From: a virus
Lineage: Duplodnaviria > Heunggongvirae > Uroviricota > Caudoviricetes
Direction: 5' to 3' (one strand)
DNA length: 6,391 bases
IMG/VR virus record: IMGVR_UViG_2778261391_000004
The notes beneath the pieces were generated by a model, which did not search any database, was not told where the DNA came from, and saw nothing but the letters and a program-made list of their open reading frames with translations. Below, piece after piece: positions 1 through 6,281 of this stretch. Both the position numbers and the translations under genes were made by a program. Every line of letters starts with the position of its first letter. The stretch's first letter is position 1.

Positions 1-1038
1 AGTAAAACCGTTCAGCTTAATCACGGCTGGAACGATGAGGCATTTAATCCAAAGGATGCGCAGCGTTATCTCTGCCGCATCTGGAGCCTGATGCGCACGG
101 CATTCAAGGATAATGATTTACAGGTCTACGGTTTGCGTGTCGTCGAGCCACACCACGACGGAACGCCGCACTGGCATATGATGCTTTTTTGTAATCCACG
201 CCAGCGTAACCAGATTATTGAAATCATGCGTCGTTATGCGCTCAAAGAGGATGGCGACGAAAGAGGAGCCGCGCGAAACCGTTTTCAGGCAAAACACCTT
301 AACCGGGGCGGTGCTGCGGGATATATCGCGAAATACATCTCAAAAAATATCGACGGCTATGCACTGGATGGTCAGCTCGATAACGATACCGGCAGACCGC
401 TGAAAGACACTGCTGCGGCTGTTACCGCATGGGCGTCAACGTGGCGTATCCCGCAATTTAAAACGGTTGGCCTGCCGACAATGGGGGCTTACCGTGAACT
501 ACGCAAACTGCCTCGCGGCGTCAGCATTGCTGATGAGTTTGACGAACGCGTCGAGGCTGCACGCGCCGCCGCAGACAGTGGTGATTTTGCGTTGTATATC
601 AGCGCGCAGGGTGGGGCAAATGTCCCGCGCGATTGTCAGACTGTCAGGGTTGCCCGTAGCCCGTCGGATGACGTTAACGAGTACGAGGAAGAAGTCGAGA
701 GAGTGGTCGGCATTTACGCACCGCATCTCGGCGCGCGTCATATTCATATCACCAGAACCACGGACTGGCGCATTGTGCCGAAAGTGCCGGTCGTTGAGCC
801 TTTGACTTTAAAAAGCGGCATCGCCGCGCCTCGGAGTCCTGTCAATAACTGTGGAAAGCTCACCGGTGGTGATACTTCGTCACCGGCTCCCACGCCTTCT
901 GAACACGCCGCAGCAGTGCTTAATCTGGTTGATGACGGTGTTATCGAATGGAGTGACCCAGAGGTCGTCAGAGTGTTTAGAAACACATTAAAGCATTATT
1001 TGCCAATGTTTACTCGGCAAGAGAAGATAAGTGGCTAG
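1..1038 (+). CDS. A: Replication initiation endonuclease gpA (rolling-circle HUH nickase), C-terminal part; 5' end lies outside the window
   Basis: Frame 1 is open from base 1 (SKTVQLNHGWNDEAF...) to the TAG at 1036..1038. It contains an HUH motif (PHWHMM, 169..177) and a YIAKY double-tyrosine motif (322..336) like the catalytic tyrosines of phiX174/P2 A proteins. Codon usage is GC-rich like the phage backbone. Confidence 0.9.
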   Translation, partial: SKTVQLNHGWNDEAFNPKDAQRYLCRIWSLMRTAFKDNDLQVYGLRVVEPHHDGTPHWHMMLFCNPRQRNQIIEIMRRYALKEDGDERGAARNRFQAKHLNRGGAAGYIAKYISKNIDGYALDGQLDNDTGRPLKDTAAAVTAWASTWRIPQFKTVGLPTMGAYRELRKLPRGVSIADEFDERVEAARAAADSGDFALYISAQGGANVPRDCQTVRVARSPSDDVNEYEEEVERVVGIYAPHLGARHIHITRTTDWRIVPKVPVVEPLTLKSGIAAPRSPVNNCGKLTGGDTSSPAPTPSEHAAAVLNLVDDGVIEWSDPEVVRVFRNTLKHYLPMFTRQEKISG

Positions 1039-1252
1039 CTGATATAATTGCATAGGATTACATTGTTCGTTTGGATGGTCGGAGCTTGGAGAGAGTAACT
1101 GTCGTTCACTTGCTTTGAGTTTTTCAAAATGACCATCAGCAGCAAATTGGGAACTTCAGGGGGCTGGAGCGTGGCTATTAATCATCCGAAAAATCACTTT
1201 CTCACATTAAGGGATTGTTAGTTTGATTCAACTTTTAAAGCAACTATGGCTT

Positions 1253-1280
1253 TAGACAATGACTGATGTCATGATAGAAT
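1253..1280 (+). promoter_or_regulatory. Candidate sigma70 promoter for the methyltransferase gene
   Basis: -35-like TAGACA (1253..1258), 16-bp spacer, extended -10 TGaTAGAAT (1272..1280), about 40 bp upstream of the ATG at 1321. Sequence-only prediction. Confidence 0.3.
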
Positions 1281-1320
1281 ACATGATCGTTAGTTGAATC
1301 TTTAGCATGGTTATTTGAAT

Positions 1321-2472
1321 ATGAATGTAGTTGATTTATTCTCTGGAGTTGGCGGTTTAAGCTTAGGGGCAACTCGAGCCGGTTTCAACTTGGTTGGAGC
1401 TGTTGAACTGGATAAACATGCTATTTTTTCACATGAGTTAAACTTCCCAAAATCAACACATTTGCATCGGGATGTCTGCTCGCTTACAGCAAAAGATATT
1501 TTGTCTGCATGTGCTGTAAAGGACATTGATTGCGTTATTGGTGGTCCACCTTGCCAAGGATTTAGCACCATTGGAAAAAGGAATGCCAATGATACAAGAA
1601 ATGAATTGTATATTCATTTTTTTAGGTTGGTAAGTGAGTTATCTCCAATTTGTTTTTTGGCAGAGAATGTTCCAGGAATTATGGGTGAGAAATATAATCC
1701 AGTAAGAGAAGAAGCATTTTCTTTAGTTAGAGATGGCTATTGTTTATTACATCCAATAAGGGTTAATGCTTCAAATTATGGAGCACCTACGACACGGACA
1801 CGAATATTTTTCATGGGTTTTAAAAGAGGTTTTATTAATCAGTTAAAAGAATCTGATTTTTTTCCTAAAAATATAATAGAGCAGACTCTTGTCAAAGATG
1901 CACTCTACGGATTACCGCGAACTATAAGAAAAGAGTGGCAGACAGAGGAGCAAGGCTGGCGTTCAGTAAAAATGGATAAAGATGGTTACTATTATGAGCG
2001 ACTTTGGGGACATATACCAAATGGTGTAGGTGATGCAGAATCCATTCAAAATTTAAAGAAAGGATTGGTATCTGGCTTTTTAGGTACAGCTCATTCGGAG
2101 GAAGTGCTCAGGAGATATAGACAACTTTCATTCGGTGAAACTGATAAGATTTCGAGATCACAACGACTCAATCCTAACGGTTTTTGTCCAACTTTGAGAG
2201 CAGGTACAGGAAGTGACAAGGGGAGTTATCAGGCCGTTAGGCCAATTCACCCTACTCAAGCTAGGGTGATAACTCCTCGTGAAGCAGCTAGGTTACAAGG
2301 GTTTCCTGATTGGTTCCGTTTTCATCCTACAAAGTGGCACAGTTTTAGACAGATAGGTAATAGCGTTAGTCCGCTTGTGGCTGAGGCTATGCTATTACCT
2401 TTATACGATTACTGTTTAAAAGTTAAAAAAGAATCTTTGAATACCATGGAACGACCTTGTAGTATTCGATAA
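1321..2472 (+). CDS. DNA (cytosine-5)-methyltransferase (Dcm-like C5-MTase)
   Basis: Long ORF with C5-MTase motifs in canonical order: motif I FSGVGG (1339..1356), motif IV GGPPCQGFS with the catalytic Cys codon at 1552..1554, motif VI ENVPG, and motif X QIGNSVSP near the C-terminus. The ORF track starts at TTG 1315; ATG 1321 is the more likely start. AT-rich codon usage. Confidence 0.9.
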   Translation: MNVVDLFSGVGGLSLGATRAGFNLVGAVELDKHAIFSHELNFPKSTHLHRDVCSLTAKDILSACAVKDIDCVIGGPPCQGFSTIGKRNANDTRNELYIHFFRLVSELSPICFLAENVPGIMGEKYNPVREEAFSLVRDGYCLLHPIRVNASNYGAPTTRTRIFFMGFKRGFINQLKESDFFPKNIIEQTLVKDALYGLPRTIRKEWQTEEQGWRSVKMDKDGYYYERLWGHIPNGVGDAESIQNLKKGLVSGFLGTAHSEEVLRRYRQLSFGETDKISRSQRLNPNGFCPTLRAGTGSDKGSYQAVRPIHPTQARVITPREAARLQGFPDWFRFHPTKWHSFRQIGNSVSPLVAEAMLLPLYDYCLKVKKESLNTMERPCSIR

Positions 2473-3415
2473 AATTACTTAGATCGGAGTTGGCTCCAGA
2501 AGGAGTGGAGCCAATGTAAAACCCTAGAGTTTCATGGATGTTTTCTACTGAAGCTTCGGGTAATAAAGATTCAATATGTATCCTTTCTTTTAAAGACATA
2601 GCAGGGACGTTTATATTTTTAGGATTACTCCACTTCCCATCATAAAATGGCCAATTCTTGATTCTGGAATTATCAATAAATTTAGCTTCTTCTGTATCAG
2701 TGTTTTCAAGAACGATAGCTGTTAAAGTAACCATCTGTTGGCCATCTTTATAAACGAAAGAAGTTAATGGATGTATTCTTATGTCATTTCGACCTTTTAA
2801 TCCATGCCCTATTGCGCGTCTCATAGCATTAACTAGGAGCATAGGGTATTTTTTAAATCCGACATCTTCGACTACTGCATTCGGTGGTAAAAAATCTTGA
2901 GTCAAAATATCGTTTATCTTTTGAAATCTATATGCTCTTGGATCTCGTTCGCTCGGGTTTTTTCCCAAGGCTTCAGGGTTTGCATTTAAAGTGATCTTAA
3001 AAATGTCTTTGGGTTTTAGCTTTGTAACCAAATTAACTATTTCATTTAACTGAGCATTTAAGTCTGAAGGCGTTGCATAATCTAACCATATGATCGTTTT
3101 ATCGTCAAAGTTATAGCGATTGATGAAGTCTCCGCTCATTTCTGGGGTATCACCCAAATTTATGCAAGATAATGGTTTGTTAAACTGTTGTCGGCAATGG
3201 ACATTTTTATCTCCTTCGATAGATATCATTTTAGTCACTTTTAACAAATTATGAATTTGTTTGAAATCTTCGAGGAAAGGCCCCCCGAATCCTATATATA
3301 CATATTCGGATATGTTTGTATAATTGTTTAACCTTCTTAGGGATTCTATAAATAGATTCCTTTCAATGGCTTTGTTTTGCCGCAAATGATATGGGATGCT
3401 TCCGCCAGTACTCAT
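2423..3415 (-). CDS. Hypothetical protein (330 aa), second gene of the GHKL-ATPase operon; candidate effector or partner of unknown fold
   Basis: Uninterrupted 330-codon ORF whose ATG (3415..3413) overlaps the TGA of the upstream ATPase gene (ATGA coupling), with an AAGG Shine-Dalgarno-like element upstream. It has the same AT-rich composition as its neighbours. It contains a glycine-rich YVYIGFGGPF segment followed by acidic strand-end residues (ISIEGD, IIWLDY), reminiscent of a Rossmann-like fold, but function cannot be assigned by eye. Confidence 0.6.
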   Translation of the reverse strand: MSTGGSIPYHLRQNKAIERNLFIESLRRLNNYTNISEYVYIGFGGPFLEDFKQIHNLLKVTKMISIEGDKNVHCRQQFNKPLSCINLGDTPEMSGDFINRYNFDDKTIIWLDYATPSDLNAQLNEIVNLVTKLKPKDIFKITLNANPEALGKNPSERDPRAYRFQKINDILTQDFLPPNAVVEDVGFKKYPMLLVNAMRRAIGHGLKGRNDIRIHPLTSFVYKDGQQMVTLTAIVLENTDTEEAKFIDNSRIKNWPFYDGKWSNPKNINVPAMSLKERIHIESLLPEASVENIHETLGFYIGSTPSGANSDLSNFIEYYKVVPWYSKILF

Positions 3416-4836
3416 TGTTTAGCCTTTTTTAGAAATTCATCAAAACAATATTGACCAACCTCTGTTGGTGGTTGAGTTGCATCATCAAAGAGAAACTCTG
3501 ACACCAGTTTTATTTCACTATGTCTACGGCTAAATTTTATCTGACGTAATGGATCCGAATCCCGAGGCATTGGTAGCTTCGGTTTGAAAACTTCTCCTCC
3601 TATTGAACGTCGAACGTTCGACCAGTTTTCTCTAGGAATTGATTTAGTAAAGTCGACCTCAGTTGTTGAAACCATATTGGATGCAGTATTAATAATTTGC
3701 TTTCTTTCCTCTGCGTTACTTTTCCATTTGTTGGTAAAGTCCGTGAAGAATTTTAAACCCTCGCGCATAAAATCTTTAGTAGAAAGATATAGCTCAGAGT
3801 TACCATCAACACCTCGTTTAGTTGTAGTGATAGGTAGTAATTCAGCATTTGATGATGTGAAAATAACAACACCAGAAATTCCGATGAATTGAGTATGATA
3901 TTGTGGAACTCCAGCTTCTCCCCAACCTGTAAGCTTGGTTTTATCCGCATGTAGGACTACACGATCATTGCATATAATTGTCCAACCAGCTTTTTCTGTT
4001 GTGGAACGGCCTGATAATAAATTCTCTTCTTCTTCCTCACTAGGCAAGTTACGATAAAATCCAACTGCAACTTTAATTGAAACTCCATTTGAATTATTTT
4101 TATATACATAAGGAGCAATGCCGTCGGTATTGCCTTTAATGGCTTCTTCATCAAATATTAAATTGGTGCTATTTGGCTTAACAATACATCCATTTACTTT
4201 AACCTCAAACCCTTTTTTAATGATTAAACTATAATGATTTGCTATGATATTAATCAAAACTTCTTCAAAGCCACGATCCTTTGATAGGGATGCTTTAATA
4301 TCTTTCCTTAAATTGTTAATTTGGATGCTGACGCCTGTTTCGTTTAAGTCAACATTATTTCGCTCTAACTCCAAAGACCAGTTTTCATCATCAGCCATCC
4401 ATTCAGGAGAAATGGTAACTGAAAATTGTTCGTTTTCAGTTTTGCTTAAAATCTGAGCAGATGTCCCCATTTTGAAAATCGCTCGTTTCATTCCGATACC
4501 ATATACACCAATTGTCGGGAGATCATCCGCCTCACGTTCTGCAGGTCTACCCAACCTAAACGCATAGCTTTCCGCAAGTTTTGCTGGAATACCTCCGCAA
4601 TTATCAGTTATTCTGAAACTATTCTCATCAAATTCAATATGAGCATAGTAACCCTTGTAAACGTCTGATTTACCGAAGGTTTGCTCTGGAGTGAAATTGT
4701 TTTTTCTTAATACACCATCTAGGCAGTTATCTAGTAAATCTAGAATTGAGTCAGACAACTCAATATCTCGGGTGAGCATCTCAACAAAGAATCTTTTTGC
4801 TGGAAATGCTGCTATTTTGACGTTTGACGAAACCAT
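3412..4836 (-). CDS. GHKL-superfamily ATPase, MORC/HATPase_c_3-like (474 aa)
   Basis: Bergerat-fold motifs in canonical order in the N-terminal 120 residues: N-box DLLDNCLDG (4717..4740), G1 box DNCGG (4591..4605), G2 box GVYGIGMK (4486..4509). AAGGA Shine-Dalgarno 6 nt upstream of the ATG at 4836. Long ORF with AT-rich codon usage. Confidence 0.8.
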   Translation of the reverse strand: MVSSNVKIAAFPAKRFFVEMLTRDIELSDSILDLLDNCLDGVLRKNNFTPEQTFGKSDVYKGYYAHIEFDENSFRITDNCGGIPAKLAESYAFRLGRPAEREADDLPTIGVYGIGMKRAIFKMGTSAQILSKTENEQFSVTISPEWMADDENWSLELERNNVDLNETGVSIQINNLRKDIKASLSKDRGFEEVLINIIANHYSLIIKKGFEVKVNGCIVKPNSTNLIFDEEAIKGNTDGIAPYVYKNNSNGVSIKVAVGFYRNLPSEEEEENLLSGRSTTEKAGWTIICNDRVVLHADKTKLTGWGEAGVPQYHTQFIGISGVVIFTSSNAELLPITTTKRGVDGNSELYLSTKDFMREGLKFFTDFTNKWKSNAEERKQIINTASNMVSTTEVDFTKSIPRENWSNVRRSIGGEVFKPKLPMPRDSDPLRQIKFSRRHSEIKLVSEFLFDDATQPPTEVGQYCFDEFLKKAKQ

Positions 4837-4859
4837 AAATTATCCTTTTTCGAACAGTA

Positions 4860-4889
4860 ATTTTCGCATTCATGCATAATGGCTGTGAA
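4860..4889 (-). promoter_or_regulatory. Candidate sigma70 promoter for the ATPase/330-aa operon
   Basis: On the minus strand: -35-like TTCACA (4889..4884), 18-bp spacer, -10-like GAAAAT (4865..4860), about 25 nt upstream of the ATG at 4836. Weak match, sequence-only. Confidence 0.25.
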
Positions 4890-5034
4890 CGAAGATTCGT
4901 CTTGATTAGGCGTGCATGATTTTGCATACAAAATGTATGAAAAAAAAAGCTGCCTGTCTATGACTGATAGCCGTCTAGTTACTTGGTTTTCAAGACAAAT
5001 GCGACTGCATCAAAACCGTCTCATGAAGCGGGCG

Positions 5035-5053
5035 GGCGAGGCGGGGAAAGCAC
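5035..5053. other. cos site: 19-nt cohesive-end sequence of P2-type phages (terminase cleavage site)
   Basis: Exact occurrence of GGCGAGGCGGGGAAAGCAC, which I recall as the P2/186 cohesive end, in the expected place between the cargo region and gene Q. Confidence 0.75.
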
Positions 5054-5086
5054 TGCGCGCTGGCGGTGGTGCTGATTTTATTTTTT

Positions 5087-5123
5087 CAGCGTCTCAGCGT
5101 CTCAGCGTCTCAGCGTCTCAGCG
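5087..5123. repeat. Tandem direct repeat (CAGCGTCT)x4 plus partial copy CAGCG, 34 bp downstream of cos
   Basis: Read directly from the sequence: cagcgtct cagcgtct cagcgtct cagcgtct cagcg. Confidence 0.85.
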
Positions 5124-5219
5124 CGTCGTGACGGCGTTTGGATTGTGCGCCGGGGCGTTGGTGTGTCTGCGGGGTGTTTTGTGCGGTGGTGAGCGTGTGA
5201 GGGCGTGATGACGGGGTGT

Positions 5220-5241
5220 CAAAAAGCCGCCCGCAGGCGGC
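5220..5241 (-). terminator. Rho-independent terminator downstream of portal gene Q
   Basis: On the minus strand: 6-bp GC stem GCCGCC / GGCGGC with a 4-nt loop (5226..5241) followed by TTTTT (complement of 5221..5225), starting 5 nt after the Q stop codon. Confidence 0.65.
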
Positions 5242-5246
5242 GTTGT

Positions 5247-6281
5247 TCAGTCGTTGTCAGTGTCCAGTGAGTAGTTTTTAAAGCGGATGACCTCCTGACC
5301 GAGCCAGCCGTTTATCTCGCGGATCCTGTCCTGTAACGGGATAAGCTCATTGCGGACAAAGACCTTTGCCACTTTCTCAATATCACCCAGCGACCCGACG
5401 TTCTCCGGCTTGCCGCCCATCAACTGAAAGGGGATGCGGTGCGCGTCCAGCAGGTCTGCGGCGCTGGCTTTTTTGATATTAAAAAAATCGTCCTTCGTCG
5501 CCACTTCACTGAGCGGGATAATTTTAATGCCGTCGGCTTTCCCCTGCGGGGCATAGAGAAACAGATTTTTAAAGTTATTGCGGCCTTTCGACTTAACCAT
5601 GTTTTCGCGAAGCATTTCGATATCGTTGCGATCCTGCACGGCATCGGTGACGTACATGATGTATCCGGCATGTGCGCCATTTTCGTAATACTTGCGGCGG
5701 AACAGCGTGGCCGACTCATTCAGCCAGGCAGAGTTAAGGGCGCTGAGATATTCCGGCAGGCCGTACAGCTCCTGATTAATATCCGGCTCCAGCAGGTGAA
5801 ACACGGAACCGGGCGCGAAGGCTGTCGGCTCGTTGAAGGACGGCACCCACCAGTAAACATCCTCTTCCACACCACGGCGGGTATATTTTGCCGGTGAGGT
5901 TTCCAGTCTGATGACTTTACCGGTAGTGCTGTAACGCTTTTCCAGAAACGCATTACCGAACACCAGAAAATCCAGCACAAAGCGGCTGAAATCCTGCTGG
6001 GAAAGCCACGGATGCGGGATAAATGTCGAGGCCAGAATATTGCGTTTGACGTAAATCGGCGAGCTGTGATGCACGGCAGCACGCAGGCTTTTCGCCAGAC
6101 CGGTAAAGCTGACCGGCGGCTCATACCATCTGCCGTTACTGATGCACTCGACGTAATCCAGAATGTCACGGCGGTCGAGTACCGGCACCGGCTCACCAAA
6201 GGTGAATGCCTCCATTTTCGGGGCGCTGGCGGTCATTTTTTTTGCCGCAGGTTGCGGTGTTTTCCCTTTTTTCTTGCTCAT
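5247..6281 (-). CDS. Q: Portal protein gpQ (capsid portal vertex protein)
   Basis: 344-aa ORF (MSKKKGKTPQPAAKK...DTDND) that I recognise as the P2 Q protein. GC-rich backbone composition, followed by a terminator and positioned next to cos as in P2. Confidence 0.95.
   Translation of the reverse strand: MSKKKGKTPQPAAKKMTASAPKMEAFTFGEPVPVLDRRDILDYVECISNGRWYEPPVSFTGLAKSLRAAVHHSSPIYVKRNILASTFIPHPWLSQQDFSRFVLDFLVFGNAFLEKRYSTTGKVIRLETSPAKYTRRGVEEDVYWWVPSFNEPTAFAPGSVFHLLEPDINQELYGLPEYLSALNSAWLNESATLFRRKYYENGAHAGYIMYVTDAVQDRNDIEMLRENMVKSKGRNNFKNLFLYAPQGKADGIKIIPLSEVATKDDFFNIKKASAADLLDAHRIPFQLMGGKPENVGSLGDIEKVAKVFVRNELIPLQDRIREINGWLGQEVIRFKNYSLDTDND

Follow-up and report, generated by a model that had tools for sequence, protein, structure and literature searches.

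In the available text of Wang et al. (bioRxiv 10.1101/2022.10.23.513370; Ju et al. 2019 cited therein), convergent genes of Escherichia coli are described as carrying hairpin-encoding, Rho-independent bidirectional terminators that are unlike intrinsic ones, and at which the hairpin pauses the polymerases and head-on collisions finish termination. In the restriction-modification (R-M) systems EcoRI and Eco29kI, antisense RNA arises from reverse promoters inside the R gene and acts on promoters and on the 5′ end/Shine-Dalgarno region (PMC12707154, PMC3141266). Predicted R-M operons join GHKL ATPases of the MORC/paraMORC type with DNA cytosine methylases, according to the available text of Iyer, Abhiman & Aravind (2008, PMC2292703). 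The present analysis concerns the junction of two convergent genes in a stretch of tailed-phage DNA of 6,391 nucleotides (IMG/VR record IMGVR_UViG_2778261391_000004; hereafter the window). At this junction the gene for a C5 DNA cytosine methyltransferase (MT; + strand, 1315-2472 from a TTG start, or from ATG 1321 in the PGAP annotation) meets, tail to tail, the gene for a 330-aa Rossmann-fold methyltransferase-like protein (OM; - strand, 3415-2423), which follows the gene for a 474-aa GHKL ATPase (GH; - strand, 4836-3412).

The junction resembles the E. coli bidirectional terminators in being a convergent pair with hairpins that lack a U-tract and in the overlapping 3′ transcript ends that would be expected of it. 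It differs from them in that two separate hairpins lie inside the opposing coding sequences and the open reading frames (ORFs) themselves overlap by 50 bp, and termination at the hairpins is a prediction from the sequence. With EcoRI and Eco29kI it shares a methyltransferase and a partner module, the relative levels of which opposite-strand RNA could adjust; unlike in those systems, antisense RNA here would come about as a by-product of the convergence of the 3′ ends, and no restriction endonuclease could be identified. The locus has the methyltransferase of a type II R-M system, and a cognate nuclease was not seen in the OM fold, the GH fold or the PADLOC results. The likeness to the MORC/paraMORC operons lies in the genetic linkage, on mobile or defence loci, of a GHKL plus transducer (S5) ATPase and a Dcm-type methyltransferase. 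The cassette differs from those operons in having no superfamily 2 (SF2) helicase or nuclease and in its constant partner, a Trm1-like PF20553 protein, which was not found in the searched text of PMC2292703. As far as the available text of that paper goes, the MORC/paraMORC-Dcm linkage is the nearest described theme for the cassette. The location corresponds to the P2-like cargo hotspots in the available text of Rousset et al. (2022, PMC9122126), both in its position between gpA and cos/Q and in holding a variable cargo cassette. It is unlike them in that PADLOC has no model for the cassette except for MT and that an anti-phage role is only putative, and the cassette was not named in the searched text of P2 hotspot papers, including PMC9122126.

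The 50 bp at 2423-2472 are coding on both strands, with MT codons 370-385 and the stop lying opposite OM codons 315-330 and the stop. An earlier note on this DNA, made from the letters alone, had described the two genes as convergent and overlapping by this length, and the ORF coordinates confirmed it; the same overlap is present in the RefSeq/PGAP annotation of E. coli 7/2, accession NZ_CP023820. For comparison, 123 related loci were recovered. Among 22 OM homologues, with identities as low as 44%, every one finishes at one column after the conserved NFIEYYKVVPWYSKVLF, and the MT stop is at one same place in all 21 close relatives, which are termed clade A (OM 61-100% identical). Both stops were therefore genuine by family motif, by conservation and by PGAP annotation, and no frameshift or early stop was present. 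The view that one ORF end is an artefact, produced by a frameshift, a sequencing error or the decay of a gene, is scarcely credible and was ruled out by conservation as an origin of the overlap. The cassette was found at 99% identity or more in 46 complete E. coli genomes, with identical PGAP annotation, both stops are kept across diverged loci, and a conserved family motif forms the OM C-terminus. All that could be set beside this were frameshifted OM or GH copies in distant loci only (L091, L038, L061 and L064), with nothing of the kind in the window. Some copies in these loci, of OM in L091 and of GH and OM in L038, L061 and L064, appeared in tblastn as two segments that differ in frame, and are likely frameshifted or decaying.

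The overlap of 50 bp was shared by 21/21 clade-A loci, all of them in P2-like hotspots between gpA and Q, and was replaced by overlaps of 40 bp in clade B and 33 bp in clade C. The remaining convergent loci had overlaps of 47, 11, 6 or 0 bp or gaps of 1-86 nt, so that wherever MT was convergent and adjacent the packing was tight. Analysis of the OM sequence accounted for the length. In the antisense phase of OM that is used by MT, 31% of entry points are open for at least 16 codons, and synonymous resampling of the actual OM tail returned exactly 50 bp in 70-76% of trials, MT otherwise ending after 5 codons. The MT stop is the antisense of the conserved Phe-Ile codons of OM (TTY-ATH, giving TAA/TGA). 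A length of 50 bp is thus expected once the genes abut, because the OM peptide dictates both the open frame and the stop; in the other clades, too, the observed overlap length was a high-probability outcome of the same resampling. A special overlap length was rejected, since the observed one is not longer than these chance figures (31% of entry points, 70-76% of resamplings) would give.

The MT product (385 aa from TTG 1315, 383 aa from ATG 1321) matched Pfam DNA_methylase over residues 3-359 (E 1.7e-59), PADLOC MTase_II (E 5e-100) and TIGR00675 (dcm). Its conserved core stops near residue 360, by the end of the Pfam match and the tblastn end points, which is about 10 codons before the overlap, and the shortest MT relatives have 14-16 residues after motif X (GNSVSP) versus 32 in the window MT. 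The final 16 codons, KVKKESLNTMERPCSIR, are therefore a non-conserved tail, and they amount to the antisense reading of the OM C-terminus. Within clade A the MT tail is variable at many positions and the OM tail almost invariant, a pattern that fits selection acting mainly on the OM frame in the overlap. The overlap is real and conserved, is ordinary in kind and length, and looks like tight packing.

The earlier note had also stated that no terminator lies between the two genes. There is indeed no intergenic space, a terminator scan of 1000-5300 gave no canonical intrinsic terminator, with a G+C-rich stem, a loop of 3-8 nt and then a U-tract, at the junction (2300-2700), and Rfam had no match in the whole window at E ≤ 1. 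The statement does not extend to the coding sequences on either side, where two selected stem-loops were found inside the partner genes. They are formed by inverted repeats on either side of the overlap, and each lies inside one gene at 17-22 nt past the stop of the other.

The first of them, hairpin b, occupies 2355-2400 of the window, within the coding sequence of MT and 22 nt past the OM stop, and has a 12-bp stem (2355-2366 with 2389-2400), in which the MT codons for I-G-N-S-V pair with those for M-L-L-P and which includes a perfect 10-nt inverted repeat. It is the most stable 51-nt window in MT and exceeded a codon-preserving null in both senses, at P=0.001 for that of MT and P=0.015 for that of OM. 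In an alignment of 23 distinct sequences from clades A and B and locus L103, 97% of the cells were paired, and none of 500 shuffles matched the score. Four pairs showed compensatory two-sided changes, and pairs 9-48 (UA 20, CG 3) and 12-45 (UA 15, CG 8) were never unpaired. The changes all fell on synonymous third positions (GGT/TTA to GGC/TTG; AAT/CTA to AAC/CTG; ATA/CCT to ATT/CCA or ATC/CCG). Hairpin b was present in all loci of clades A and B and in L103, at 22-24 nt from the OM stop whether the overlap was 50, 40 or 0 bp, and it was absent from every MT that was not both convergent with and adjacent to OM. No slippery heptamer for programmed frameshifting was seen on inspection at hairpin b.

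The second, hairpin a (2490-2514), has a perfect 9-bp stem and a 7-nt loop, and lies in the variable loop GSTPSGAN of OM, 17 nt past the MT stop. Its 39-nt window is the most stable one in OM (z = -2.7; codon-preserving P=0.004), it was significant at P ≤ 0.02 in all 12 of the 12 loci with at least 79% identity, some of which have stems of 16 bp, and one of its pairs is compensatory (GGCTCC/GGAGCC to GGCACC/GGTGCC). Folding in the MT sense also predicted a 9-bp long-range pairing of 2444-2452 with 2529-2537 (CCAUGGAAC with GUUUCAUGG), which encloses the MT stop and hairpin a.

Other clades have hairpins of unrelated sequence at the corresponding positions, past the MT stop in L084, L089, clade B and L102, and past the OM stop in clade C and L102. 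For the clade C hairpins the OM sense gives the more stable fold, for those of clade B, L084 and L089 the MT sense, and in each of these cases the hairpin therefore favours the strand on which it would be 3′-untranslated. A hairpin-forming element was found at the convergent junction with the marks of selection, and the codon-preserving and covariation results show that both hairpins of the window are selected for. They leave little room for the view that the junction is a neutral packing accident that carries no signals and is transcribed through until Rho or chance intervenes. The overlap length does equal the chance prediction once the genes abut, no canonical terminator is present, and some relatives have no hairpin. 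Against this, no other local fold in either gene is as stable as its hairpin, codon-preserving nulls were exceeded by both hairpins, hairpin b has several independent compensatory synonymous changes, and unrelated hairpins recur at the same positions, so that a neutral accident is very improbable.

The reading that we favour, at a probability of a little over one half (about 0.55), takes the overlap for a junction at which two convergent units have been compacted, and in which the embedded hairpins would pause or terminate RNA polymerase or protect 3′ ends. The 3′-end signal of each unit would be a stem-loop 17-22 nt past its own stop, written into the opposing gene. Each hairpin lies in translated sequence on the mRNA of opposite sense, where ribosomes would melt it, and each would therefore be effectively unidirectional. 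Transcripts that ended just past the hairpins would have mRNA tails with about 160 nt of mutual complementarity (2355-2514). We infer that the hairpins set the 3′ ends and that translation gates the hairpins, and the RNA duplex may have a regulatory effect. In clade A, MT lies downstream of gpA on the same strand and GH-OM downstream of Q and cos on the same strand, and the junction would therefore also be the meeting point of rightward and leftward phage transcription; opposing phage transcription would presumably be an additional reason for barriers there.

Both units have predicted promoters. A consensus scan gave a promoter-like site TAGACA-16-TG-TAGAAT upstream of MT (1253-1280, + strand), the extended -10 of which, TGGTAGAAT, is kept about 40 nt upstream of the MT start in every clade-A locus. 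The same scan gave a site TAGACA-17-TACATT for GH-OM (4932-4960, - strand), which lies inside a conserved motif, and the motif GAACAGACAACTTTTTTTTGCATGCATTTTGATGCA upstream of GH is kept across clade A. Since both units carry conserved promoter-like motifs, complementary 3′ transcript ends for MT and GH-OM are plausible. Promoter-like matches on both strands numbered 16 versus 11.6 ± 3.2 in shuffled sequence, not above expectation, in a scan that was not aimed at internal reverse promoters. About 100 nt upstream of GH, clade-A loci share a conserved motif made up of a T-run and a palindrome (4920-4965 on the - strand of the window), which reads CTTTTTTTTGCATGCATTTTGATGCA in relatives and CATACAAAATGTATG in the window (4925-4939); it may be a promoter or an operator.

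Several observations weigh against the two hairpins as 3′-end signals of a compacted junction. A proper U-tract is absent from all hairpins, in the window and in the other clades. Hairpin b, which has a 26-nt loop, is followed in the OM sense by AUCUGUCU, and hairpin a is followed in the MT sense by UGUAAAAC; both fail the canonical terminator scan. The covariation of hairpin a is thin, with one pair only, and no hairpin was detected in the convergent relatives L008, L014, L040, L027, L029, L031 and L104. Counts of G-U versus A-C slightly favour the MT sense for hairpin a (16 vs 7) and also for hairpin b (8 vs 3), and for hairpin b the favoured strand would then be inside translated sequence. 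Within the overlap itself, synonymous divergence in the 16 codons was 0.32, the fifth lowest value among 315 windows, versus 0.48 over the remainder of OM, and the codon TCT, which in place of TCA would give MT a TAG stop and cost it its 11 C-terminal residues, was never used for Ser326 although it is the commonest Ser codon. These last two observations are a weak hint at constraint beyond pure compaction.

The strand preference of hairpin b is among the points that speak for a different function of the hairpins, which may be real and serve RNase III/E processing, ribosome pausing in the MT or OM mRNAs, cruciform formation, protein binding to a palindrome, or as a recombination joint between MT and GH-OM. 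Most pairs of the stems are of Watson-Crick type whichever strand is read, as would suit an element that acts at the DNA level or on two strands, and the identities in L084-L089, 81% for MT vs 61-64% for GH/OM, would fit module exchange near the junction. The arm sequences, however, are wholly different between clades while their position relative to the stops is kept, which argues against a site for a sequence-specific protein. In addition, the more stable fold is that of the 3′-untranslated strand both for the clade C hairpins, where this is clearly the OM sense, and for those of clade B, where it is the MT sense, and hairpin b occurs only where OM stops 22-24 nt away. On balance a purpose other than 3′-end formation is rather doubtful.

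The earlier note had proposed that convergent transcription through the overlap would balance modification against a potentially toxic partner, as in convergent R-M pairs. In this form the overlap would make the two units interfere, by polymerase collision or through a duplex degraded by RNase III, and would so set the ratio of MT to a putatively toxic GH-OM. The proposal draws on conserved promoter-like motifs in both units, which face each other, and on the complementary 3′ RNA that would be expected, 50 bp of it at the least and probably some 160 nt. The convergent overlap is also kept in three phage-borne clades with different phases (50, 40 and 33 bp), the low synonymous divergence of the overlap and the avoidance of TCT at Ser326 would fit it, and there are documented cases of R-M genes under antisense control (PMC12707154, PMC3141266). 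Gene order among the relatives did not back it. GH and OM were adjacent and co-directional in every locus and MT was nearby almost always, the GH-OM-MT linkage being present in most of the 123 loci. MT, however, was placed upstream and co-directional (MT-GH-OM, in many phyla), upstream and divergent (in alphaproteobacteria), downstream and co-directional, or downstream and convergent. Because the placement of MT varies among loci, its convergence is not required for the system, and regulation by mutual antisense is not intrinsic to a trio that is co-directional or divergent in dozens of lineages and many phyla. Among the convergent relatives the overlap ranges from 50 bp to none, with a length that the OM peptide predicts. 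In the known R-M antisense cases, EcoRI and Eco29kI use reverse promoters inside the R gene that act on the 5′ end, not a 3′ overlap. The toxicity of GH-OM is an assumption, with no nuclease domain found, and the hairpins suggest that polymerases are halted at the junction instead of running on. Interference as the purpose of the overlap is therefore unlikely.

If the compacted junction with embedded 3′-end signals is taken further, the hairpins might form a split, translation-gated bidirectional terminator, the approximately 160-nt duplex of which, by way of RNase III or polymerase collision, would couple expression of the self-marking MT to that of GH-OM as an effector pair, in a new nuclease-less, methylation-dependent phage-defence system of P2-like prophages. 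This extension is a speculative one, to which we give a low probability.

The window is, by its gene content and order, the cargo hotspot of a P2-like prophage, between gpA and cos/portal Q. The left border is the C-terminal part of the P2-type replication protein gpA (91-1038, + strand; Pfam Phage_GPA, E 1.6e-39), and the right border is the portal protein gene Q (5247-6281, - strand; Pfam Phage_portal, PGAP phage portal protein). Directly after Q, a canonical terminator-like hairpin with a T-run is present (5226-5241, - strand; GCCGCCTGCGGGCGGC then TTTTT). A 19-nt exact match to GGCGAGGCGGGGAAAGCAC, with 0 expected by chance, is found at 5035-5053 (+ strand). We take this 19-mer to be the P2 cos (cohesive-end) sequence, and if it is, the cassette directly adjoins cos. 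The cargo between gpA and cos consists of three genes only, MT, OM and GH, and gpA and Q flank the cassette in every clade-A locus as they do in the window.

Some features of the borders vary. The gpA gene next to the cassette in L001 (936-2987) is labelled a pseudogene by RefSeq (‘missing C-terminus’), and the C-terminal parts of gpA in clade A are of two types, with 66-100% or 41-43% identity to the window. Because the C-terminal part of gpA is of two types, the border of the cassette may lie inside gpA or right at its end. Just to the right of the cos sequence, the window has a perfect 8-nt tandem repeat, TCAGCGTC × 4.8, at 5086-5123. In the 46 E. coli genomes with a match to the cassette, the distance from the GH start to the Q end is 24 nt shorter than in the window by match offsets; the simplest reading, from offsets without an alignment, is that they have three fewer TCAGCGTC units.

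OM matched PF20553 (Methyltransf_35) over residues 3-328 (E 4.6e-85) and is annotated as an ‘O-methyltransferase’. Its AlphaFold2 model had a pLDDT of 90.9, and the closest PDB folds were those of the tRNA methyltransferases Trm1 and TYW2, so that OM is predicted to have a class I Rossmann methyltransferase fold. The annotation looks generic on this model, since the best structural matches are tRNA methyltransferases and not specifically O-methyltransferases. The stop of GH and the start of OM share 4 bp (ATGA). GH matched HATPase_c_3 (E 2.6e-8) and, by Foldseek, Hsp90, TRAP1 and SMCHD1 (E about 1e-15), with a marginal sequence match to MORC3 (E 0.16); it is best described as a GHKL ATPase plus transducer module resembling those of Hsp90, SMCHD1 and MORC. 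A nuclease domain was not detected in OM by Pfam or fold matches, or in GH by Pfam or Foldseek. PADLOC and NCBIfam had no match for GH or OM, PDB sequence searches with the two proteins gave marginal matches only, and PHROGs, in which OM is phrog_19983, gives function unknown for both. A literature search for PF20553/Methyltransf_35 or for the MT-GH-OM trio found nothing specific.

The trio of MT, GHKL ATPase and PF20553 protein is kept in Enterobacteria, Cyanobacteria, Verrucomicrobia, Latescibacterota and one archaeal metagenome-assembled genome (loci L002-L124). From its gene content it is plausibly a system for defence or modification, as yet uncharacterised, that has no recognisable nuclease. 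A second GHKL paralogue, with 24-27% identity to GH, adjoins MT in L006, L010, L011, L013, L015, L021 and L068, which suggests a four-gene variant of the system. The three genes have not diverged equally. Compared with the window, L084-L089 have 81-82% identity in MT and 61-64% in GH and OM, and clade C has 63% in MT and 31-45% in the partners; MT is better kept than its partners, either because GH-OM evolves faster or because modules are exchanged at the junction.

The overlap as it was first stated is an ordinary outcome of tight packing in a phage cargo cassette, and its more interesting by-products are the embedded, covarying hairpins and the uncharacterised cassette that contains them. 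The hairpins suggest that 3′-end signals can sit in the synonymous sites of an opposing gene, with repeated origin at the same positions from unrelated sequence. As a clean natural case, the junction would be suited to testing whether hairpins alone, gated by translation, can bring about termination between convergent genes. The cassette, a widespread combination of a Dcm-type methyltransferase, a GHKL ATPase and a PF20553 protein that is found in P2-like hotspots, is a reasonable candidate for a defence system.

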